Shown: positions 20,861 to 38,374 of the stretch, in pieces
Position numbering within the stretch: position 1 is the stretch's first letter
Layout of the letters: every line of letters begins with the position of its first letter
DNA from: Opitutia bacterium
GTDB lineage: Bacteria; Verrucomicrobiota; Verrucomicrobiia; Opitutales; T3Sed10-336
NCBI GenBank assembly: GCA_050506795.1
Contig: JBJHCF010000044.1
Span: 1-43,912 of the forward strand
Reading direction: 5' to 3'
DNA: 43,912 nucleotides
Program-made: the position numbers and the translations under genes
Notes under the pieces: model-generated
What the model was told of the DNA's origin: nothing
Seen by the model: the letters and a program-made list of their open reading frames with translations, nothing else
The model's database searches: none

Positions 20861-22723
20861 TCAAGCCTCCGCCATACGGCGGAATGACGGATTGCCTGCC
20901 AGCAGTTCGTCAAAGGACCCGGTGTCGATGATTCGTCCGTTGTCCATAAAAACGATGATATCGGCGCGGCGAATGGTCGTGAGACGGTGGGCGATCATCA
21001 GGATGGTCTTGCGGCCCGACAGCGATTCCACCGCTTCCACAATGGCGCGTTCGGTTTCCGAGTCCAATGCGCTGGTGGCCTCGTCAAGCACGATCACCTC
21101 AGGGTCGTGATACAGGGCGCGGGCGATTCCCATACGCTGACGTTGACCCCCGCTCAGCCGAATGCCTCGTTGGCCGACCTCGGTTTCGTAACCCGAAGGC
21201 AATTCCTTCTCGATGAAGTCGTGCAGGTTTGCCAGACGCGCGGCCATTTGTACGCGTTCGTCCGAGATCTGTTTGACCGGTATCCCGAAGGCGATGTTGC
21301 GCCGCACGCTGTCGTCGGTCAGGTAAATCTGCTGCGGGACGTACCCGCAGTTGCGCTGCCAATCGGCCTGGTTCTCCTCGGTGATCAGGACTCCGTCGAC
21401 CAGCATGCGGCCGGTTTTTGGGTAAAGCAGGCCCAAAAGAATATCGGCCAGGGTGGTTTTTCCCGCGCCGGAGCGTCCGCAGAGCCCGATTCGGGTCAGG
21501 GCGGGAATCCGCAGGGAGATTCCGTGCAAGGCGGATTTTTCGCTGTTGGGGTAGGCGTAGGAGAGGTCCTGGATTTCGATAGCGTTTCGCAGGGAGAGGC
21601 GAGGATAATCTTTCTCGCGCGGGTCGCCGCTGGGTATTCCCGGGAGTGCTTTCCGGGGGTTTTGCAACAGGCGCGCGCATTCGTCGTGAACGGTATCGAC
21701 GCTCTTGGTCAGGTACCGCAGCCGGCTGAAACTGCCGTATAAGCCCTGGATTGCCGGAATCAAGCGGTAACCGGCCACGGCGAACAGGCCGAGCACGGGC
21801 AGGGCGCCGGCCACGCCATCGTGTTGCCGGATCAGCAACAAGGCGACGCCCACCATGCCGGCGAAAGCGAACGTCTCGACCAGGTATTTGGGCAGTGCCG
21901 AGTAAAGCGCCGCCCGCTCCTGAAATCGAAAGAATCGGTGGGAGGGTTTCTCGAAGGCGGAAATGAAATTTTCCTCACGGCGCAGGACTTTGAGCTCCTT
22001 GATGGTATCGAAGGCCTCGCTTACCGTTTTGAAGCGAAGGCGGTCCGATTCCGAGCGTTTTTCGGCCGCCCGCATCAGACGAGGCCGCAAGTAAACGTAG
22101 ATTGCGGTGTAGGTCGCACCAAAGAAAACGCCGGCTCCGAGCGCCACCCAGGGATTTACCACAATCAGGAGAACACTGAGGCCGGTAATGACCAGAACCT
22201 GAGTGATCAGCCCCACCGAGGTGCCCAGGAAGCCGTGACTCACCCTTCCCACTTCGGAAAATATATTGCGCAGAAATTCCGAGGTATTTCGGTTCAGATA
22301 GAAAGTGTAGGGGCGGCGAAGGTAACTTTTCATTAGTAGGGTGGAGAGGTAGGTGTCCAGTTTGGCGCTAAAACGAGCGCCCAGGATACTGTGAATAACC
22401 CCCAGAAGATTCGCCAGCACCACCGCCGCGATAACGACGCCTCCCAGGATCACCAACAGCATGGCGTCATCAATCGGACCGGTGATGGAGGTCAGAATAG
22501 CGAAGATTCGGCTTTCCTGCATACCCGCAGGGTCGGAGATGGCCTGCAGAAAAGGCAGGATCGAACCGACCATGGCGAGTTGGGCCAGGGCGTTGATGTT
22601 CATCAACACAAAAAGGCCCCCGACACCCCATCGATAGGGCCGGGGGAGCAGTGACCAACATTTTTTGACGGCTTCCAGCATGGCGCTCGGACCAGCATTG
22701 GCGGGTAAATCAGGCAGCGTCAA
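20861..22723 (-). CDS. ABC exporter, fused permease/ATPase (PglK/HepA-like, no C39 peptidase domain)
   Basis: Six TM segments; GRSGAGKTT; VPQ Q-loop; LSGGQRQR; DEATSALD; IAHRL; start TTG 22723 or ATG 22681. Confidence 0.93.
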   Translation of the reverse strand: MTLPDLPANAGPSAMLEAVKKCWSLLPRPYRWGVGGLFVLMNINALAQLAMVGSILPFLQAISDPAGMQESRIFAILTSITGPIDDAMLLVILGGVVIAAVVLANLLGVIHSILGARFSAKLDTYLSTLLMKSYLRRPYTFYLNRNTSEFLRNIFSEVGRVSHGFLGTSVGLITQVLVITGLSVLLIVVNPWVALGAGVFFGATYTAIYVYLRPRLMRAAEKRSESDRLRFKTVSEAFDTIKELKVLRREENFISAFEKPSHRFFRFQERAALYSALPKYLVETFAFAGMVGVALLLIRQHDGVAGALPVLGLFAVAGYRLIPAIQGLYGSFSRLRYLTKSVDTVHDECARLLQNPRKALPGIPSGDPREKDYPRLSLRNAIEIQDLSYAYPNSEKSALHGISLRIPALTRIGLCGRSGAGKTTLADILLGLLYPKTGRMLVDGVLITEENQADWQRNCGYVPQQIYLTDDSVRRNIAFGIPVKQISDERVQMAARLANLHDFIEKELPSGYETEVGQRGIRLSGGQRQRMGIARALYHDPEVIVLDEATSALDSETERAIVEAVESLSGRKTILMIAHRLTTIRRADIIVFMDNGRIIDTGSFDELLAGNPSFRRMAEA

Positions 22724-22975
22724 GCAGGCCGCATGGTGAGCCGGTCAAAACGAACCTCCCCAAAAATATTCCCGGATCAGGGTCTTTTTGTTTGCGAGCT
22801 TTGACCCGCATTTCTTAGCGCGGAATCTCAAATTCGGAATTTTCGATCTGAAATGTTTTTTTGATGCGGTCTTCAGAGGCCAAATGGAAAAGCTGTGCTG
22901 CCCGGAATGGCTTGGGGCAGCAATCCTTGACAGAAATGTCGCAACCGGAGTAGGAAGTTGGCTCTCGAATTCTCG

Positions 22976-23287
22976 ATGAAATCCACCGAAACATTTTCCG
23001 ACGACTGCGTCGTTGTGGCCGTAAACGATCAACTGACTTGTGACCTGGCCGGGGAGGCGGCGGTATTACACCTGCCTGACGGGGTGTATTATGGTCTGAA
23101 CGAAACCGGGGCGTTTCTGTGGGAACGCTTGCGCAGTCCGGTGCGGGTGGCCGACCTGCGCGCCGCTTTACTGGCGGAGTTCGAGGTGACGGAGACGGTG
23201 GCCGATCGCGACCTGAACGCGCTCTTGAACGAGCTTACGAAGGCCGGATTGATTGAGGTGCGCCGGGCAAACTCGGCTGAATCATAG
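22976..23287 (+). CDS. PqqD-family RiPP recognition element (lasso B1-like RRE)
   Basis: GEAAVLHLPDGVYYGLNETGAFLWERL...LLAEFEV...DLNALLNELTKAGLI; about 103 aa. Confidence 0.92.
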   Translation: MKSTETFSDDCVVVAVNDQLTCDLAGEAAVLHLPDGVYYGLNETGAFLWERLRSPVRVADLRAALLAEFEVTETVADRDLNALLNELTKAGLIEVRRANSAES

Positions 23288-23439
23288 GGGTTTCCCTTAT
23301 GTTCGGTGTGGGTTTTTTCGGTGTTCTTACGAGGGAAGCCCTGATTGTTATGTTGGCTTAGGCATGCTAAGCTGTGGTCATAGTTTTAATCAACGAGTCT
23401 CTGTTTGAATACAGTTTTCGTTACGGAGGAAAAAAACCA

Positions 23440-23613
23440 ATGAAAGAAGGAACCATGGAAAAAGTAACCACACCTCGGCCTTATGTCGCTCCGAAGCTTT
23501 CAAGCTACGGAAGTGTTTCGGACCTGACAATGGGTCGCAGCGAGGCATACAACCTGCCTCAATACACGGGCCGGAATGGCGCCTACGACGATCCGAGATA
23601 CAACGTTTCCTAA
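23440..23613 (+). CDS. Lasso-type RiPP precursor peptide (57 aa)
   Basis: GGAGGA RBS at 23425-30; leader YVAPKL (YxxPxL) and G-x5-T with Thr at -2 before Gly; core GRSEAYNLPQYTGRNGAYDDPRYNVS; lies between RRE and kinase. Confidence 0.88.
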   Translation: MKEGTMEKVTTPRPYVAPKLSSYGSVSDLTMGRSEAYNLPQYTGRNGAYDDPRYNVS

Positions 23614-23702
23614 ATCGGACCGTTGAGGACCGTTGATTCAAGGCTCCAGCGTTCAATATAGGAACAGAGCCACTCATCGGAAACCCATTCTACCTAGTCT
23701 AC

Positions 23703-23743
23703 AAAGCAACCCGGCGTCCATTGGATGCCGGGTTGCTTTTTTT
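23703..23743 (+). terminator. Rho-independent terminator after the precursor gene
   Basis: AAAGCAACCCGGCGTCC-ATT-GGATGCCGGGTTGCTTT followed by a T tract. Confidence 0.88.
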
Positions 23744-23882
23744 GTATCCACGGCGCTTGGGGGCCGGGGTTAAGTGGGTTCCCATCGTCTTGACAGTTTC
23801 AAAGAGGCTGGCATAACACGATTTGTCGCGGCACGTGGGTGGACAGCGACGAACTCAACGTGTGTGTAATCATAGGATCGAG

Positions 23883-24794
23883 ATGCCCAGGTACAGATTT
23901 GCCGGAATTCCGGTTAACTCCGAACTCGAACTTCCCTTGCCGGTCGATCGGGCTTCCGATGCCGATGACGGAATTTCCATTGAATTGGGACCGCCGATCA
24001 GCGAACGGGAACTTCAGGAGAGGAGGGGGTGGAATTGGGAGTCTGCCGATTCCGCCCACTTTGGTTATTCCGGGCTCGGGCAGGCCTGGGTACGTGATGG
24101 GCGCCAGGTTCTCCTCCGACCGATGAGCGGTTTGCAGGCGGAAGCCGAATGGCGCGGTCTGTTGATTCCCTGTTTTGCGGCTCTGTTTCATCAGAGGGGA
24201 GTCCTTTCGCTCCATGCAAGCGCGGTTTGCGGTCAGCGCGGGGCCGTGGGGGTGGTGGGCCATCGGGGCGCCGGGAAATCGACTCTGACGGCACAATTGG
24301 TTAGCGGCGGCATGCAATTTCTTTCCGACGACCTCCTGATTACCAGTTGGGTGGCCGAACCGGGGTACGTCGTCGCCCATCCCGGATTTTCGATCATCAA
24401 GCTTTGGGAGGACGCCCTCGAAGCTGCCGGAAAGGGATTTTCCCGAATCGGCCGCTTATACCCCGACGCCTCCAAGGACGGGTTTTCTCCCGATGAGGCG
24501 AAATTCGCGCGCGAGCCGGTTCCGCTCCGTTTTCTGGTGGTCCTGACGGAAGGGGACGAGGTAAAAATAGAGACCCTTTCCAGGGCGGACGCCGTGGCTG
24601 AGCTCCTGATCCACACCTACGGCGTGGCCGTTTTCGAACACCGGCCGCTGCCGATCCACTTCCGGCAATGCGGGGAACTGGCTGCGCGTGTTCCGGTGAT
24701 GCGCCTGGTCCGGCCGAAGAACTTCGACTGCGTGGAAGAGGTTCGCGCCACAATCGAGAAGGCGTTCGCCGATACCGTAGCCGGCGACCAATAG
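23883..24794 (+). CDS. HPr kinase-like kinase (lasso peptide kinase PadeK/ThcoK-like)
   Basis: LSLHASAV, Walker A GHRGAGKST, LSDD (His-Lys-Asp-Asp set), IKLWED; ATG 23883 preferred. Confidence 0.85.
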   Translation: MPRYRFAGIPVNSELELPLPVDRASDADDGISIELGPPISERELQERRGWNWESADSAHFGYSGLGQAWVRDGRQVLLRPMSGLQAEAEWRGLLIPCFAALFHQRGVLSLHASAVCGQRGAVGVVGHRGAGKSTLTAQLVSGGMQFLSDDLLITSWVAEPGYVVAHPGFSIIKLWEDALEAAGKGFSRIGRLYPDASKDGFSPDEAKFAREPVPLRFLVVLTEGDEVKIETLSRADAVAELLIHTYGVAVFEHRPLPIHFRQCGELAARVPVMRLVRPKNFDCVEEVRATIEKAFADTVAGDQ

Positions 24795-24950: not shown

Positions 24951-26798
24951 ATGTGTGGAATTGTAGGATATGTGGGCAGGGCGCAAGCGGGTCCGATTCT
25001 TCTCGACGGATTAAAACGTCTGGAATACCGGGGCTATGATTCGGCCGGATTGACGGTGCATCAGAAGAATCGTTTGGCGTGTGTCAAAGCGACCGGTCCG
25101 GTGACCAACCTGGTCAAGGAAACGGGTCGGCGGGATGTTGGCGGCTCGGTTGGCATCAGCCACACCCGCTGGGCGACCCATGGAGGGGTGACCACCGCGA
25201 ATACCCACCCGCACCTGAGCAGAGACGGCACACTGGCTTTGGTGCATAACGGCGTCATCGAGAATTTCGAGAGCATCAAGAGGTTTTTGCTTGGCAAAGA
25301 CTTCACCTTTTCCTCGGAGACCGATTCCGAGGTCCTGGTGAATCTCATCAGTTATCACTACGAAAAGGAAAGGTGCGAGCCGGAGAAGCGTTTCTTCGAG
25401 AGCGTCCGGAAGGCCCTTCTGCACGTGGAAGGAACGTATGGAATCGCGGTCATGTGTGTCCATAATCCGAAAGAGATCATCGGAGCCCGCTTGGGATCCC
25501 CGCTAATTTTGGGGGTTGGCGACGGGGAGTTTCTGCTGGCCAGCGACGTTTCCGCAGTGGTTTCCCGGACCCATAAGGTGGTGTATCTCAAGGATAACGA
25601 GGTGGTGTCTCTCTCCTCCGAAGGGTTTTCGATTTCCACGATCAACCGGGAGGAAGTGGATCCCATCGTCAACGAGGTCGACTGGGCGATCGAGGATTCC
25701 GAACTCGGTATTCACCAGCACTACATGGAAAAGGAGATTTTCGAACAGCCGCGTTCCTTGGAGAACTCGATGCGCGGCCGTTTCACCGACGACGACAGTT
25801 CGGCGAATTTCGGCGGTTTGAATCTTTCGCCCCAGGAATGGCGCGGAGTGGACCGCATTCTCTTCTGCGGCTGCGGAACCGCCTGGCACGCCTGCCTGGT
25901 GGCGGAGTATCTGATTGAAAGGTTTGCCCGTGTTCCGGTGGAGGTGGAGTACGCTTCAGAGTTTCGCTACCGGAACGCGCCGTTGGACAAGAACACCCTG
26001 TTTTTCGCCATCAGTCAGTCCGGAGAAACCATCGATACGCTGGCGGCCATGCGGGAGGCCAAACGCAAAGGTTACCGAACCCTGGCGATCACCAACGTCG
26101 TGGGTTCCACCATCGCGCGTGAAGCGGATGGCGGGATCTACCAGCACGTCGGCCCCGAGATCGGGGTGGCATCCACCAAGGCGTTCACTTCCCAAATCCT
26201 TTTGGCCGCCATGGTGGCGCTTTACCTGGGCCGTCTGAGAGACGTCAGCTACACGGACGGTCGCACGATCGCCAGGGCCCTCCGGCAACTCCCCGAACTG
26301 GCCGAGCGGGTCCTGGAACAGAGCGATGCGATCCGTGAGATCGCGCGTCGTTACGTCGATTACGAGGATATGCTTTTCCTGGGGCGTCAGGCCATGTTCC
26401 CGATTGCCCTGGAGGGAGCGCTGAAGCTAAAGGAGATTTCCTACATCCACGCCGAGGGGTATCCGGCGGCGGAAATGAAACATGGTCCGATCGCCCTGAT
26501 CAGCGAAAAATGTCCCAGTGTGTTTCTTTCGCCGCAATGCGAGACCTTTCACAAGGTCGTTTCCAACATGCAGGAAATCAAGGCGCGCAAAGGCAAGGTG
26601 ATCGCTGTGGCTTCCGACAGTTGCGAGTTTCCGGACGGCCTGGTGGACGACCTGATTCGAGTGCCCGATGCGCATGAAGCCCTTCAGCCGATTCTCTTCA
26701 CTTTGCCGGTTCAGTTGCTCAGCTACTACATTGCCGTCGAGCGCGGCTGCAATGTCGACAAACCGCGAAACCTGGCCAAGTCGGTGACAGTGGAATAA
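24951..26798 (+). CDS. glmS: Glutamine--fructose-6-phosphate transaminase
   Basis: MCGIVG, RLEYRGYDSAG, HTRWATHG, SQSGET, VASTKAFTSQ, EGALKLKEISY, DKPRNLAKSVTVE. Confidence 0.98.
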   Translation: MCGIVGYVGRAQAGPILLDGLKRLEYRGYDSAGLTVHQKNRLACVKATGPVTNLVKETGRRDVGGSVGISHTRWATHGGVTTANTHPHLSRDGTLALVHNGVIENFESIKRFLLGKDFTFSSETDSEVLVNLISYHYEKERCEPEKRFFESVRKALLHVEGTYGIAVMCVHNPKEIIGARLGSPLILGVGDGEFLLASDVSAVVSRTHKVVYLKDNEVVSLSSEGFSISTINREEVDPIVNEVDWAIEDSELGIHQHYMEKEIFEQPRSLENSMRGRFTDDDSSANFGGLNLSPQEWRGVDRILFCGCGTAWHACLVAEYLIERFARVPVEVEYASEFRYRNAPLDKNTLFFAISQSGETIDTLAAMREAKRKGYRTLAITNVVGSTIAREADGGIYQHVGPEIGVASTKAFTSQILLAAMVALYLGRLRDVSYTDGRTIARALRQLPELAERVLEQSDAIREIARRYVDYEDMLFLGRQAMFPIALEGALKLKEISYIHAEGYPAAEMKHGPIALISEKCPSVFLSPQCETFHKVVSNMQEIKARKGKVIAVASDSCEFPDGLVDDLIRVPDAHEALQPILFTLPVQLLSYYIAVERGCNVDKPRNLAKSVTVE

Positions 26799-26967
26799 GC
26801 CGAATGCCGGTGGATCCGAACGATTTTACAGGTTGACTTCGCCTTCCGGGATTCGTTCAATCCGGGGTTTTTCATGGCATGGAAGCGTATCCGGCGGGAG
26901 CTTGCCGGAAGGCTTTCTCCAGGCATCAGATGGATGACTGCCGTGCCCTGTCGAAAACCATTCGCCT

Positions 26968-28116
26968 ATGAACGTTCTTAAATCGACCCTGCTGGCTGCG
27001 GCCCTGTGCCTGACCGCGTTTCAATCCAGTCCCAATCGCGCTTTGGCGGCTTTCGATCTTCCCCATGGAGGCTTATTCATCAACGCCTACGGAGAGGCGG
27101 CCTACACCAGCAATCTTTTTCTGACTTCCCGGGAGGAGTCGGATGTGGTGTTAACGGTTCTTCCATCGCTCGAATACCTGATGGCCGAGGGATTGGTTCA
27201 TTTCGAGGCGCACGCCGGCGTGGAATTTCTTCGCTTTATCGACTGGAGTGATCTGGATACGGAAAACCTCAAGTCGAGTTTCCTTCTGTCGTTTCCGCAC
27301 GAAGATCGAGGGAGGATGTTCTTTTTCCAGGTAAACGGCGGCTACAATGAAATCACCTCCGCAACCGCGGTTGACGGAGCTCTCGTGCAGGAGGACGAAA
27401 TTTCCGTGGGCGCTGATCTGGAGTATTTTTTCTCCGATCGGACGTCGGCCCGGTTCGGAGCTTCCCACCGGGATCGAGATGCGCGTACCGCGGGCTTCGC
27501 CTCGCGGAGCGTGACCATGCTGCGCCTCGGGCCGGCACATGAGTTCTCCGAACGCCTGACCCTTTCCGGTGCCGTTCGCTATCGCAAGACCGATGTTTCG
27601 GGAGTCAGACCGGCTCTGGATTCCGAGGATTATTCGCTCATCGTGGGCGCGGAAGGTCGCCTCTTGGCCTTGCTGGTCGGCGAGGTGGCGATCGGTCTGC
27701 AGCGGCGGACTTTCGACGGCGATTTCGACGACCAGACCGAACCTTATGCGTTTGCCGGGCTCACCTGGGAGATGGATGAGATGACCGAAATCAATCTTTC
27801 GCTGACAAGCGACATGCAGACTTCGGCTTCGAATCTTTCCGGCCAGACGATCCTGGTGTCCCTGGAAGGTGTTCGCCGCATCGGGGAGCAGTTGCGGCTT
27901 AATCTGGGCGCCGGCTACGAGGATTCCTCTTATGTACAAGCCAGTGGGAACGAGCGTAACGACGATGAATGGTCCGTGTTTGGAGGGGCTCGTTACAGTC
28001 TGAACCGGCATGTTTCCCTCAACTGGGACGTCTCTTTCGCCCAGCGAAATTCAGATTTCTCGGCATCCAATTACGACGTCGTGCGCACCGGAGTTTCGGT
28101 GGACGCGCGGTTTTGA
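26968..28116 (+). CDS. Exopolysaccharide-locus outer-membrane beta-barrel protein
   Basis: Signal peptide, YTSNLF barrel start, terminal DARF; directly upstream of Wza/Wzc. Confidence 0.8.
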   Translation: MNVLKSTLLAAALCLTAFQSSPNRALAAFDLPHGGLFINAYGEAAYTSNLFLTSREESDVVLTVLPSLEYLMAEGLVHFEAHAGVEFLRFIDWSDLDTENLKSSFLLSFPHEDRGRMFFFQVNGGYNEITSATAVDGALVQEDEISVGADLEYFFSDRTSARFGASHRDRDARTAGFASRSVTMLRLGPAHEFSERLTLSGAVRYRKTDVSGVRPALDSEDYSLIVGAEGRLLALLVGEVAIGLQRRTFDGDFDDQTEPYAFAGLTWEMDEMTEINLSLTSDMQTSASNLSGQTILVSLEGVRRIGEQLRLNLGAGYEDSSYVQASGNERNDDEWSVFGGARYSLNRHVSLNWDVSFAQRNSDFSASNYDVVRTGVSVDARF

Positions 28117-28120
28117 ACTG

Positions 28121-28801
28121 ATGTCCCGGGCGATTATGAATGGATTTCTCGGAGTTTTGGCCCGGATGTCCTTGACTGCGTTGATCTGCTGCGGAGTGTT
28201 TATTCCGGCTTTGGCGGGACAGGAAACCGGGGATCTTCGTTCGGATCCGACGACCATGGAATCCGAAACCGCCTCGACGCCGTACCTTCTCAGTCCTTTT
28301 GACACCGTTAGAATCTCGGTCTACGGGCAACCGGACCTGGATACTCGGCAACGGATTACGGATGCGGGAGTGGTTTCGCTTCCCCTGTTGGGAAATGTCA
28401 GGGTCGGTGGGTTGGCGGTGCGCGAGGCTCAGGAGAGGATCCGGATCGCGTTTATCGAAGAGGAACTCCTCCGCAACCCGGTGATTTCTTTGGCGATCGA
28501 GGAATTTTCACCCAAACAGATCACCGTTCTCGGACAGGTCACCCGACCGGGCGCGATAACGCTTCCCAGCGGCTCCAACGATATCGCCATTGAATCCGCG
28601 ATCGCTATGGCCGGAGGCTTTACCGGGACCGCGCGTCGAAGTCGGGTCCGGGTCACCCGTTTCGATGATGAAGCCGGGCGTGAAAGAGTTTTTCAGGTCG
28701 ACCTGGATGAAATTCTGGCCGATAGCGACGGAGATTTTACCACCGGCGGGTTCCGGGTGTTTCCCGACGACATCGTGTTTGTGCCCCAGCGATTGTTTTA
28801 G
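28121..28801 (+). CDS. wza: Polysaccharide export protein (Wza/Poly_export + SLBB)
   Basis: YLLSPFDTVRISVYGQPDL, GVVSLPLLG, VLGQVTRPG, AIAMAGGFT, DDIVFVPQRLF. Confidence 0.88.
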   Translation: MSRAIMNGFLGVLARMSLTALICCGVFIPALAGQETGDLRSDPTTMESETASTPYLLSPFDTVRISVYGQPDLDTRQRITDAGVVSLPLLGNVRVGGLAVREAQERIRIAFIEEELLRNPVISLAIEEFSPKQITVLGQVTRPGAITLPSGSNDIAIESAIAMAGGFTGTARRSRVRVTRFDDEAGRERVFQVDLDEILADSDGDFTTGGFRVFPDDIVFVPQRLF

Positions 28802-28915
28802 GCGATACGCTTGGGCCGATTTCGGCTGATCCGGAGGTTTTTCTACTTTGATTTCCGGTTTGCGATCCTTCCGGCTTGCCTCCCATCGCGGGAAACTCTC
28901 CCATTCATTTTGTTC

Positions 28916-31135
28916 ATGTTCGAGCCATCGCATAACCAAGCTTCAGATCCGCTGCACGAAAACGGCGGCGAGTTTCTTCGGCTGGGCGACATTGTACTGA
29001 TTCTAAGACGTCGGGGCTGGATCGGGCTATTGGCGGGTCTTCTGGTTGGAGGGGGGGCGATGCTGGGAATCATGCAACAGACGCCCCGGTACGAAGCGTC
29101 GTCAAGTCTGGTTGTGGAGCTCAATCCGGATCGAGTGGTGAATGTGGAGGAGGTGGTCGACATCGGTGTGGAAGGCGGGCTTCTGGCCGCTGCCATGAAT
29201 ACCCACCTGGAACGCCTGCGCAGCCGCCGAATGGCGGAAACGGTGCTGGAGCAATTGAGCCCGGCCCAAAGGGAACAGGTTCGCCGGCCGTTTCTGAGAG
29301 CCAATCAGCATTCCGACGAGCAGGTTGTCCTATCTCCCGGGATGATTCGCGATATCATCGAAATCCGCTGGTTACGCAACTCCCAGGTTCTGCAAATCAG
29401 CGCCCGTCATCCCGATCCGGAAGTAACGCGCCTTTTATCGAACCTCTACGCCCAGAATTATATCGGGTTTCAATCCTCGCTTCGCGACAGTTCGACCGCG
29501 TCGGCGGTTGCTTTCTTGGAAGGCGAGGTCGCCGATATTCATCGGCGACTGGAGGCCGGGGAGCGGGAATTGGCGGAGTATCGGCGGCTTCACAATCTCG
29601 TGGCGCTTGAAGACAATCGGAATATTATCACAGACGAAATGCGCCAGATAAACGCGGCGCTTACCGAACAGCGAGTCAAGGCGATCGAACTTCGTACCCT
29701 CCTGCAGCAGATCGATGAGGCCGGGGACGATCTGGACCGATTGCTGGAGATTTCTACCGTCGCCCGCCCAACGATTATACAGGAACAGGTTTCGCAGCTC
29801 CGGGAGGTGGAGAACGAGCGCGACGAATTGTCCGAAACTTTCCTTCGTCGCCATCCCAGGATGGTGGCCAATGCCTCGCGGCAGGCTTCGGTTGAATCGA
29901 CATTGCGGCGGTCCATCGAGCGCAGAATCGCTGAAATCCGCGGAGACTATGCCGCGGTTCAAACCAGTATCGCCGGCTTGGAGACGGAATTGAGGGAGGC
30001 CGAGGCGCGGTCGCTGGAACTGGATCGATTGGCCATTGACCTGAATACGCTTCGCCGCGGGGTCGAGGCCGAGCGGCGCACCTACGAACAGTTGGCGGCG
30101 CGGCTCAATGAGACCATGGTGACAAGTCAGATCGATATCACCAACCTGCGTATCCTGGATCTGGCGGATACGCCCAGGGAACCGTTTTCTCCGAGTTTGC
30201 TTTTGGCCGGATTGCTGGGAACCGCGCTTTTTGGCATCGTTCTGGTCGGTCTGCCTGTGGGGATCGAGCTGATGGATAAGCGACTGCAGACCTACGCCGG
30301 AATCGAGAACTACATCGGCAAATCGGTGCTGGGCGATGTCAGGTTCCTCCCCGGGAAGTCGAGCAGTCAGATTATGACCGGGGTGATGGCGGAGGAAGAA
30401 GCTCTTCTGGAGTCATTTCGTGCGATTTACAGCAGTCTGCTCCTGCACCGGCTTCCGGAAGCCCCATTGACCCTGATCGTGACCTCCTCGATTCCGGAGG
30501 AGGGTAAAACCTCCATCGCCGGAAACCTGGCTCAAATTTTCGGACGCCACGGAAGGAAAACTTTGCTTATCGACGCTGATCTTCGGCGGCCGTCGCTACA
30601 CCGGGGATTCAACCTCACCAATGACCAGGGCGGCCTCGTTCCCTGGATTCAGAGCGAGGAAGGTTTGCCGCCAGTGGGCGTGACCGTGGAAAACTTTGCC
30701 CCGCTTGCCGTGGCGCAACTGGGGTCGAATACCTGGCTGCTTCGTTCCGGGGGATCGACCAAGTCGCCCACCGAGATTTTCGCCAATACCAAGTTCGATC
30801 AGATTATTTCGAGGATCAAGACGGAGTTTGAGGTCGTGATCCTGGATACTCCGCCGGTGGGGGTGTTTCCCGACGCCACCTTGATTGGAGACTACTGCGA
30901 TGGCACGGTGTTTGTCGCCCGCCAGCGAAAGGTCACCAAGGCCCGGGCTCGCAATTCGGTTCTGCGTATGGACCGGACCGCGGCGCCGGTTCTCGGCGTG
31001 GTTTTCAACGCTGTCCGCGGTCATTCGGCCACCAGTGGTGACGGTTATGGATACGGTGAATCCTACCATTACGGCTACGGGAAAGACGTGGAGAAATACC
31101 GAAAGCAATACGCGCAGTCGGAATCAAGGGATTGA
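28916..31135 (+). CDS. wzc: Polysaccharide co-polymerase / tyrosine autokinase (Wzc/GumC)
   Basis: Two TMs flanking a coiled coil; TSSIPEEGKT, IDADLRRP, ILDTPP; Tyr-rich tail GYGYGESYHYGYG. Confidence 0.93.
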   Translation: MFEPSHNQASDPLHENGGEFLRLGDIVLILRRRGWIGLLAGLLVGGGAMLGIMQQTPRYEASSSLVVELNPDRVVNVEEVVDIGVEGGLLAAAMNTHLERLRSRRMAETVLEQLSPAQREQVRRPFLRANQHSDEQVVLSPGMIRDIIEIRWLRNSQVLQISARHPDPEVTRLLSNLYAQNYIGFQSSLRDSSTASAVAFLEGEVADIHRRLEAGERELAEYRRLHNLVALEDNRNIITDEMRQINAALTEQRVKAIELRTLLQQIDEAGDDLDRLLEISTVARPTIIQEQVSQLREVENERDELSETFLRRHPRMVANASRQASVESTLRRSIERRIAEIRGDYAAVQTSIAGLETELREAEARSLELDRLAIDLNTLRRGVEAERRTYEQLAARLNETMVTSQIDITNLRILDLADTPREPFSPSLLLAGLLGTALFGIVLVGLPVGIELMDKRLQTYAGIENYIGKSVLGDVRFLPGKSSSQIMTGVMAEEEALLESFRAIYSSLLLHRLPEAPLTLIVTSSIPEEGKTSIAGNLAQIFGRHGRKTLLIDADLRRPSLHRGFNLTNDQGGLVPWIQSEEGLPPVGVTVENFAPLAVAQLGSNTWLLRSGGSTKSPTEIFANTKFDQIISRIKTEFEVVILDTPPVGVFPDATLIGDYCDGTVFVARQRKVTKARARNSVLRMDRTAAPVLGVVFNAVRGHSATSGDGYGYGESYHYGYGKDVEKYRKQYAQSESRD

Positions 31136-36989: not shown

Positions 36990-37078
36990 TATCAAGGTAT
37001 TAACGAAAGCGAGGCAACGACATGACACAACACGACAAAACACCGCTAAACTCAAAAAGTGGCCAAGAAGTGGCCAAG
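36990..37078 (+). promoter_or_regulatory. att arm: IHF consensus site and tandem integrase arm-type repeats
   Basis: TATCAAGGTATTA (36990-37002) matches WATCAANNNNTTR; AAGTGGCCAAG x2 in tandem (37057-37078). Confidence 0.65.
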
Positions 37079-38374
37079 CGGAGCAACCTACAGACTCGCA
37101 AACGGGCGGCATCGAAGTATTCCGCCGAGTACTGGCGGGACCGGATCGTCCGCCCGACATACTCCAAGGACGGGAAAAAGGGGCAGGTGCAGCAGTGGCA
37201 CGCCAGAATCCAGGCGGCCGGCCGTCGCCAGTGGGTGGGGCTGAACACGAACAACCGGGAGGAAGCCGCCCGCACCGCCGCCCGACTCTATGGGGAGATC
37301 ACGGCGAAGGGATGGGACGCGGCGATTGCCGCATTCAACCCCGACAAGGTGAAAAAAGCTGAGGTCGAGACCGTGGGGGAATTCCTCCGGGCGGTCGAGG
37401 AATCGGCCGACACGCTTTCACCCCGGACCCTGTACGGCTACACCAGTTCATTCCGTTGGCTGGTGGCCGCCGTCTTCGGCATCGAGGGGGACAAATCCCG
37501 ATTTGATTACCGGAAGGGCGGAAACGACCGCTGGCGGGCGAAGATCGACGGGAAAAAGCTGTCGGACCTGACCCCGCAGAAAATCGAGCATGCCCTGTCG
37601 AAATTCATCACGAAGGCGGGGGCGTCGCCCGTTGACCAGAATAAGGCGAAGCGATCCGCCGCCAGTGTCGCCCGTCAGGCGAGGGCGCTGTTCTCCCGGA
37701 AGATGCTCCGCCGGTTGCCCTTCGATCACGTGCCGAACCCGTTCCAGGGCGTCGAGATCGAGGGCGCGAAAGTCCGCAAGTACGTAGGGACCATGAACGC
37801 GGAAAAGCTGTTTGCCGATGCCAGGGGCGAACTGGACGGCGAAGCGTACAAGGCGTTTCTGCTCGCCCTGGGGACCGGACTGAGGCGCAAGGAAATCGAC
37901 AACCTGCAATGGCAGCAGATCGACGCGGAGAAGAGTGTGATCCGCATTCGGACGACCGAGGATTTCGGGGCCAAGACCGAGGACAGCGAGGACCAGGTTT
38001 TCGTCGACCCCGGCCTAGTGTCCGAACTGATGAGGTTTCGGGAAAGCGCAACGGGGCTTTTCGTCCTGGAAGGCGGGGAATCCCGGCCTAACGCGAAATA
38101 CGCATATTACCGGGCAAACGATGCGTTCAAGAGGTTTATCACGTGGCTTCGGGTCAAGGGCGTCATGGACAATAAGCCGATTCACACCTTGCGGAAGGAA
38201 TTCGGGTCCATGATCGCCGCGACCTCCGACATTCACACCGCCAGCCGCCAGCTTAGGCATTCCAACATTCAGACCGCCGCCAGCTACTACCTGGACCACC
38301 GGCGAAAGGTTTCGCCCCCGATTGGGGACTGGATGGGAAAATCCGAGGAAGCGAACACGGAGGCCGGGTCATGA
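37022..38374 (+). CDS. int: Tyrosine recombinase / phage integrase
   Basis: TGLRRKEI (Arg), GAKT (Lys), HTLR (HxxR), LRHSNIQTAASYY (His, Tyr). Confidence 0.93.
   Translation: MTQHDKTPLNSKSGQEVAKRSNLQTRKRAASKYSAEYWRDRIVRPTYSKDGKKGQVQQWHARIQAAGRRQWVGLNTNNREEAARTAARLYGEITAKGWDAAIAAFNPDKVKKAEVETVGEFLRAVEESADTLSPRTLYGYTSSFRWLVAAVFGIEGDKSRFDYRKGGNDRWRAKIDGKKLSDLTPQKIEHALSKFITKAGASPVDQNKAKRSAASVARQARALFSRKMLRRLPFDHVPNPFQGVEIEGAKVRKYVGTMNAEKLFADARGELDGEAYKAFLLALGTGLRRKEIDNLQWQQIDAEKSVIRIRTTEDFGAKTEDSEDQVFVDPGLVSELMRFRESATGLFVLEGGESRPNAKYAYYRANDAFKRFITWLRVKGVMDNKPIHTLRKEFGSMIAATSDIHTASRQLRHSNIQTAASYYLDHRRKVSPPIGDWMGKSEEANTEAGS

Follow-up and report, generated by a model that had tools for sequence, protein, structure and literature searches.

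A repeated core in a lasso-type precursor of an Opitutia bacterium and a candidate family of linear, cyclase-independent phosphopeptides

The precursor gene A1 of an Opitutia bacterium (assembly GCA_050506795.1, contig JBJHCF010000044.1; the window is the whole stretch of 43,912 nucleotides that was analysed) probably encodes a linear peptide from which a B2 peptidase would remove the leader and which would receive phosphate close to the C-terminus, a reading to which we assign a probability of about 0.6. The tandem repeat in its core, to which the first-pass annotation had drawn attention, is real at the level of this allele and is not a conserved design; it is likely a lineage-specific duplication within a fast-changing spacer, and on its own it most likely reflects unremarkable turnover of the sequence. 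Of more use is the family to which A1 belongs, a putative B2-dependent, cyclase-independent phosphopeptide system with cores that conserve almost only a terminal Ser. This points to the phospho-Ser, not a ring, as the handle through which lasso-type clusters linked to polysaccharide function; the role of these clusters is called unknown in PMC13381572.

The A1 leader (Table 1) passes the NCBIfam model lasso_leader_L3 (NF033521; 22.3 bits, cut-off 19) and combines the [Y/W]xxPxL motif with Thr(-2), as expected of a lasso leader. Starting the core directly after T-x places Asp or Glu at core positions 7–9 in 86 of 106 lasso-leader matches, which validates the cleavage register; the set comprised 111 non-self matches, five of which fell outside the leader pattern or length limit (106 retained, 108 with P0141 and P0142), and P0034 and P0072 were left out as long repetitive proteins. 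The only acidic residues of the A1 core are E4, D19, and D20, and positions 7–9 read N7-L8-P9, in agreement with the first-pass annotation, which had found no acceptor at 7–9, Glu only at 4, and Asp at 7 and 8 when counting starts at Gly13 of the second unit. Since the register is sound and positions 7–9 hold no Asp or Glu, no standard ring is possible from Gly1. A structural model of the RRE together with residues 28–57 of the precursor (score 0.02, mark 0.34) carries no weight in either direction. RNA-library contigs (run X2) span 23397–23661, including the A1 gene, which is a weak hint only; no contig of that run lies on the RRE or the kinase gene, and such contigs cannot show absence or expression level. 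The contigs of DNA runs X3 and X4 leave the core uncovered.

Table 1. Features of the A1 locus, in window coordinates
Feature	Positions	Strand	Remarks
MsbA/PglK/HepA-type ABC exporter	20861..22723	-	divergent from RRE
Stand-alone RRE (PqqD / lasso B1 type)	22958..23287	+	PF05402 65.5 bits; NF033536 54.8 bits, below cut-off 80
Precursor peptide gene A1	23440..23613	+	57 aa: lasso-type leader 31 aa + core 26 aa
RRE-binding motif YxxPxL of leader	23482..23499	+	Y15, P18, L20 invariant in 6/6 family precursors
Thr at -2, sets predicted B2 cleavage before Gly at 23533	23527..23529	+	T30 invariant in 6/6
Repeat unit 1	23533..23568	+	no Asp/Glu at 7–9; Ser3; holds [Y/W]xxPxY stretch
Repeat unit 2	23569..23604	+	Asp-Asp at core 19–20; half that varies among relatives
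C-terminal Val-Ser, Ser being the predicted phosphorylation site	23605..23610	+	S57 sole invariant core column, alignment A3
17-pair hairpin + T run, terminator-like, between precursor and kinase	23703..23739	+	
HprK-like peptide kinase K1	23886..24794	+	intact His-Lys-Asp-Asp; ORF open from TTG at 23823
glmS followed by genes for polysaccharide export (outer-membrane, Wza-like, and Wzc-like)	24951..31135	+	context

A1-type precursors were collected from 12 family genomes and from protein sets, and 11 distinct ones were counted (A1, P0002, those of genomes G001, G002, G003, and G006, P0031, P0032, P0035, P0046, and P0100), duplicates from three metagenome loci and two further close loci being counted once. 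A K1 kinase was seen beside five of the 11, and the rest were assigned by sequence, with P0002 and P0031 linked to K1 kinases only through contigs of equal length and four more precursors standing without context. Of the 17 loci that a metagenome scan yielded, three have a K1-type kinase, and their precursors are the same as counted ones. Asp or Glu at positions 7–9 occurs in none of the 11 cores, as against 86 of 106 among all lasso-leader matches, and five cores (G001, G002, G003, P0032, and P0035) hold no acidic residue at all; both counts argue for a linear product and support the option of a different chemistry, without a macrolactam, that the first-pass annotation had raised. A linear phosphopeptide is further suggested by the core endings, which are (V/I/L)-S, -SF, or -SG in 11/11, although the search profile was built from A1-type peptides, which favours a V-S ending and limits this count. 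The Ser is penultimate in five members and the sole core Ser in four (G002, P0031, P0032, and P0046). By Fisher test, V/I/L-Ser endings were compared between acceptor-less (7/22) and acceptor-bearing (3/86) cores, a contrast inflated by collection and kinship. Several family cores are built from short Gly/Asn/Lys/Arg repeats, so internal repetition appears to be a family habit. A1 and P0002 share Asp-Asp-Pro and Ser3 and have aromatic/acidic cores, unlike the Gly/Lys-rich rest, which counts against the preferred reading. Precursor alignment against a phylum-wide sample of 401 genomes returned the host genome (G000) alone, which does not imply absence, and at E 1e-15 the kinase was present in 11 of 401 order-level genomes, six of them with the K1 type.

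The core at 23533–23610 translates to GRSEAYNLPQYT GRNGAYDDPRYN VS, followed by TAA, and its two 12-residue units are identical at six of 12 positions (G1, R2, A5, Y6, P9, and Y11). The tandem repeat claimed in the first-pass annotation is borne out statistically (p = 1.5e-4 in 200,000 core shuffles, counting at least six identities at any period of 6–13), and a comparable repeat occurred in 49 of 40,000 random 26-mers drawn from long ORFs of the host genome. The DNA of the units agrees at 20 of 36 bases (16/24 at codon positions 1–2 and 4/12 at position 3); the codon differences previously listed (GGT/GGC, CGC/CGG, GCA/GCC, and CCT/CCG) are present, and both shared Tyr pairs are coded TAC/TAC. 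Four out of four fourfold-degenerate shared codons differ while the residues stay the same, a hint that this allele is under some constraint at the protein level, which counts against the preferred reading. The earlier impression of protein-level conservation stands within this allele and falls across homologues.

P0002, the closest homologue and the only close one found, is 77% identical to A1 over its full length and has an almost unchanged leader. Its core has 0/12 matches at period 12 (best 2/11, shuffle p = 0.84), so on this one count a homologue lacking the repeat, named at first pass as grounds for calling A1 a degenerate variant, does exist; a degenerate lasso variant is nevertheless not what A1 represents, since the acceptor at 7–9 is absent from 11/11 family cores. 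Residues 1–11 of the P0002 core resemble unit 1, with Gln replacing Glu4, no acceptor at 7–9, and the ending VSG, and the second half keeps Asp-Asp-Pro in the register x-R-x-x-x-x-D-D-P from Ala12. In an RNA-library contig from a close strain, Pro21, one of the shared repeat residues, is changed to Ser; the two other coding differences are silent, one of them lying in the last codon, which still encodes Ser. In a second, divergent RNA-library contig, every one of the 10 gap letters (net +6) falls within codons 20–25. The RNA-library contig differences fall at 23590–23607 and thus in the second unit, which together with the P0002 comparison marks unit 2 as the variable part. Absence of the repeat from P0002 and retention of the last Ser in the Pro21→Ser variant both argue for the linear reading. 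A second allele carrying the 12-residue repeat in full did not turn up in the protein searches.

The gene neighbourhood of A1 combines a stand-alone RRE, a kinase of the HprK-like type, and an MsbA-like exporter with no cyclase of its own, the combination that characterizes the linear polyphosphorylated peptides (LPPs) discussed below. No B2 peptidase or lasso cyclase was found within the window, and a scan of window proteins that covered every cluster gene (42 of the 128 ORFs with at least 100 aa, plus the precursor) gave no match to an SpI-like (SipW-type) peptidase. The host genome has one B2 peptidase gene, on contig C4 (G000:C4:81118-81552; L010:5119-5553), and its product passes NF033537 (95.8 bits, cut-off 33), keeps the Cys and His motifs, and is 42–51% identical to the in-cluster B2 of relatives, where B2 fills the leader-peptidase place; this resemblance is one of the arguments for the linear reading. 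Both B1 (RRE) and B2 of a lasso pathway are thus available, the RRE adjoining A1, B2 lying on C4, and the two being adjacent in G001–G003. The C4 gene stands solitary; its neighbours, judged by eye, are probably a heavy-metal ATPase and a sensor protein. Neither precursor of this genome lies on its contig, whereas in relatives B2 directly follows the RRE. Hairpin-T-run sites numbered four against 3.4 expected in shuffles, so only the length and place of the site between precursor and kinase are notable. At 22760–22900, between exporter and RRE, unrelated contigs pile up in all four runs, and this element is probably a dispersed repeat of the lineage.

The kinase K1 matches HprK_rel_A with an E-value of 3e-8, below the cut-off of the model, and its residues H110, K131, D148, and D149 are invariant in five of five K1 kinases. 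His-Lys-Asp-Asp is the catalytic set named in PMC9266682, according to which PadeK acts on the linear precursor. In a tree of 40 kinases, the five that stand beside acceptor-less precursors fall into one clade (14 rows, support 100/100), separate from eight cyclase-adjacent kinases; this separation, together with the intact catalytic set, favours the linear reading. The tree indicates one lineage and not repeated co-evolution, because kin share labels, and the kinases nearest to K1 come from records labelled Opitutia/Opitutales.

Genomes G001, G002, and G003 hold exporter, RRE, B2, A1, and K1 in one block, and searches of them with PF00733 and the G000 cyclase returned only an AsnB-type orthologue and two weak matches to unrelated enzymes; completeness is 97% for G003, 87% for G001, and 82% for G002, and a cyclase could be absent from the G001 and G002 assemblies. 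An exporter homologue adjoins the RRE in these three genomes and the RRE-B2 pair in G006. Cyclase-type genes occur in four of the 12 family genomes (G000, G006, G008, and G009), in each case immediately next to another precursor, A2, which has Asp9, from which it follows that the cyclases travel with A2 and not with A1. The complete blocks of G001–G003 with no detectable cyclase and the pairing of every cyclase with A2 are further grounds for regarding A1 as linear. On contig C12 of the host genome, two cyclase-type genes (315 and 319 bits, below the NF033535 cut-off of 525) are followed by A2 (Asp8-Asp9), a protein with a fused RRE, and another kinase; no macrolactam cyclase cognate to A1 was found. 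A single B2 and a single stand-alone RRE appear to be shared, in G000 and G006, between the linear A1 and a true Asp9 lasso precursor, an arrangement in which the sharing of pathways could be tested compactly beyond Bacillota.

In the proposed pathway, the RRE would bind the YxxPxL leader of A1, and the still linear precursor would be phosphorylated by K1 on its terminal Ser, in the manner of PadeK, ThcoK, and PsmK (PMC9266682; PMC6993621); for A1, both the modification and its site are predicted by analogy with PadeK and PsmK. The C4 B2, encoded outside the A1 locus and acting in trans, would cut after Thr-Met and before Gly1, and the ABC transporter would presumably move the product out. Sugar decoration by a PF14907 nucleotidyltransferase homologue is possible. 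LPP clusters include an NTP transferase gene; here the homologue is absent from the window and encoded on contig C36, with 41% identity to a G006 protein, and in G006 the orthologue lies inside the RiPP cluster. The C36 gene (G000:C36:44883-47598) adjoins a probable nucleotide-sugar dehydrogenase, read by eye, and lies far from both precursors. A 36-base duplication in a loosely constrained mid-core spacer would have left the repeat. More speculatively, the phospho-Ser might be an attachment point linked to surface polysaccharide.

Three described systems come close to the A1 family. LPPs, encoded by lppA-K-B-S-D-N of Paenibacillus alginolyticus (Popov et al., 2026; PMC13381572), share with it a lasso-like YxxP leader, a stand-alone RRE, a kinase of the HprK-like type, an MsbA-like exporter, the lack of an own cyclase, proximity to polysaccharide genes, a true lasso pathway in the same genome, and a well-kept leader before a variable core. 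In LPPs, however, the leader peptidase is an SpI-like signal peptidase and not B2, the leader follows YxxPxVLxHQxIxFETxxS, which the A1 leader, of the canonical lasso L3 pattern with Thr(-2), does not match, and phosphorylation is on Ser3, whereas the conserved Ser of the A1 family is terminal or penultimate; LPPs are described as restricted to Bacillota, unlike the Opitutia/Opitutales labels of the kinases nearest to K1 (PMC13381572). The paeninodin/pseudomycoidin type (PadeK, ThcoK, PsmK, and PsmN) has in common with the A1 family B1, B2, an HprK-like kinase with His-Lys-Asp-Asp, a C-terminal Ser, an ABC exporter, and a PF14907-type nucleotidyltransferase homologue, and differs from it in Asp/Glu at 7–9 and an in-cluster cyclase (PMC9266682; PMC6993621). 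The penultimate Ser of five A1-family members is unlike paeninodin and counts against the preferred reading. The Bsf lasso peptide of Bradymonas, the kinase of which is assisted by B1, shares with A1 a Gram-negative host and the Ser3 of this allele, but it is described as the product of a lasso cluster in which Ile stands at -2 and Ser3 is phosphorylated, whereas A1 has Thr(-2), no acceptor, and a Ser3 that is not family-conserved (PMC10368454). By peptidase and leader consensus A1 falls outside the LPPs, and by acceptor and cognate cyclase outside the lasso peptides; the most fitting description of its family is a pathway of the paeninodin type from which ring closure is missing. A literature search confined to main texts returned no description of a B2-dependent, cyclase-less kinase RiPP in this lineage, which the supplementary tables of the LPP paper could nevertheless list, and none of tandem-core lasso precursors.

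Among other explanations, the locus may be a partly decayed relic in which the peptide is made, and perhaps phosphorylated, with the leader kept while the core drifts freely; the loss of B2 from the A1 locus, the very variable core, and the state of the locus in G007 (a kinase with an internal stop, a short RRE, and neither precursor nor B2 found in a genome 82% complete) would fit such decay. We consider this unlikely, given that RRE, kinase, exporter, and C4 B2 all have uninterrupted frames and retain their catalytic motifs, that the leader is almost unchanged in P0002, and, weakly, that RNA-library contigs span the precursor gene. In the decaying G007 copy (L054:5209-6368, G007:C157), the RRE is shortened and reads on into a kinase gene that a TGA interrupts. 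Alternatively, K1 could act in the same linear pathway on core Ser3, the residue modified by LppK and BsfK (PMC13381572; PMC10368454), instead of the terminal Ser; Ser3 is found in A1 and P0002 and is missing from the other nine family cores, as against a terminal or penultimate Ser in 11/11, which makes modification there quite improbable.

With a second cut before Gly13, as the shifted cleavage site suggested at first pass would require, a 14-residue unit would be released, in which a C12 cyclase could join Gly13 to Asp19 or Asp20 to form a small phosphorylated lasso. Asp indeed stands at 7 and 8 from Gly13, and two cyclase-type genes exist in the genome; PsmC needs neither leader nor leader peptidase (PMC6993621), and unit 1 has a [Y/W]xxPxY stretch in both alleles and in 0/108 other cores, which fits the RRE consensus quoted in PMC13381572. 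Part of the register idea survives in P0002, where Asp-Asp-Pro falls at 7-8-9 from the residue preceding its second Arg and x-R-x-x-x-x-D-D-P is kept in register from Ala12, although the repeat does not. The second start is nevertheless preceded at -2 by Tyr in A1 and by Gln in P0002 and not by Thr, the [Y/W]xxP lies seven residues before Gly13 and not 17 as in the true leader, and [Y/W]xxPxY arises in 7.5% and 3.6% of shuffles. The cyclases, moreover, have their own Asp9 precursor in 4/4 genomes, five family cores hold no acidic residue, and the divergent RNA-library contig places all its gap letters in codons 20–25, so that this route to a lasso has little probability. Equally slight are the chances of its extension, in which unit 1 is a second, internal leader that hands unit 2 to a cyclase encoded on another contig to give the 14-residue phosphorylated lasso; if true, a linear-peptide lineage would have regained a ring through internal duplication and the cyclase of a neighbouring pathway. 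A two-cassette precursor yielding two related 12-residue products, also proposed at first pass, draws on a repeat that is statistically real in this allele, yet P0002 does not keep it, no processing site, spacer, or second leader lies between the units, and unit 1 has neither acceptor nor terminal Ser; it is highly improbable. Similarly remote is a non-standard ring on the full core, closed by a C12 cyclase from Gly1, a usual lasso N-terminus, to Glu4 or to Asp19/Asp20, since cyclases do exist in trans but Glu4 is Gln in P0002, known rings use positions 7–9 (PMC6993621), and relatives with no detectable cyclase keep the system.

P0120 and P0126, which came from the same lasso-leader search, consist of two to four cassettes, each with its own lasso-type leader, a short Asp/Glu core, and a stretch, S-D-x-R-L-K, that corresponds to the beginning of Peptidase_S74, and they are candidates for real multi-cassette lasso-like precursors; their leader is repeated with each unit, unlike in A1.

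The module around A2 is an observation in its own right. It occurs in four of the 12 family genomes (L008:3328-12971 on G000:C12, L049, L074/L088, and L076/L085) and comprises a tandem pair of lasso-cyclase-type genes, a precursor (Thr1, Asp9), and a protein of 400 aa that has an RRE at its C-terminus. The N-terminal 330 residues of the latter have no Pfam match and, by eye, may be phosphoribosyltransferase-like. In G000, both a membrane protein of 1013 aa, which contains a spermidine-synthase domain, and the second kinase follow, and this module may be the more novel system of that genome. Downstream lies a polysaccharide cluster (L009:614-15513, G000:C12) with genes for a nucleotidyltransferase, an epimerase, a DegT aminotransferase, a C-C bond lyase, a TPP enzyme, an ATP-grasp protein, a lyase, and a flippase-type protein. 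A third lasso-like motif on the same contig (C12:94502-94714) was attributed to chance, having no in-frame start upstream and lying antisense to a longer ORF. In the window itself, a tyrosine recombinase-like gene at 37022–38374 is followed by unassigned ORFs up to the contig end, and this segment is possibly a mobile element.
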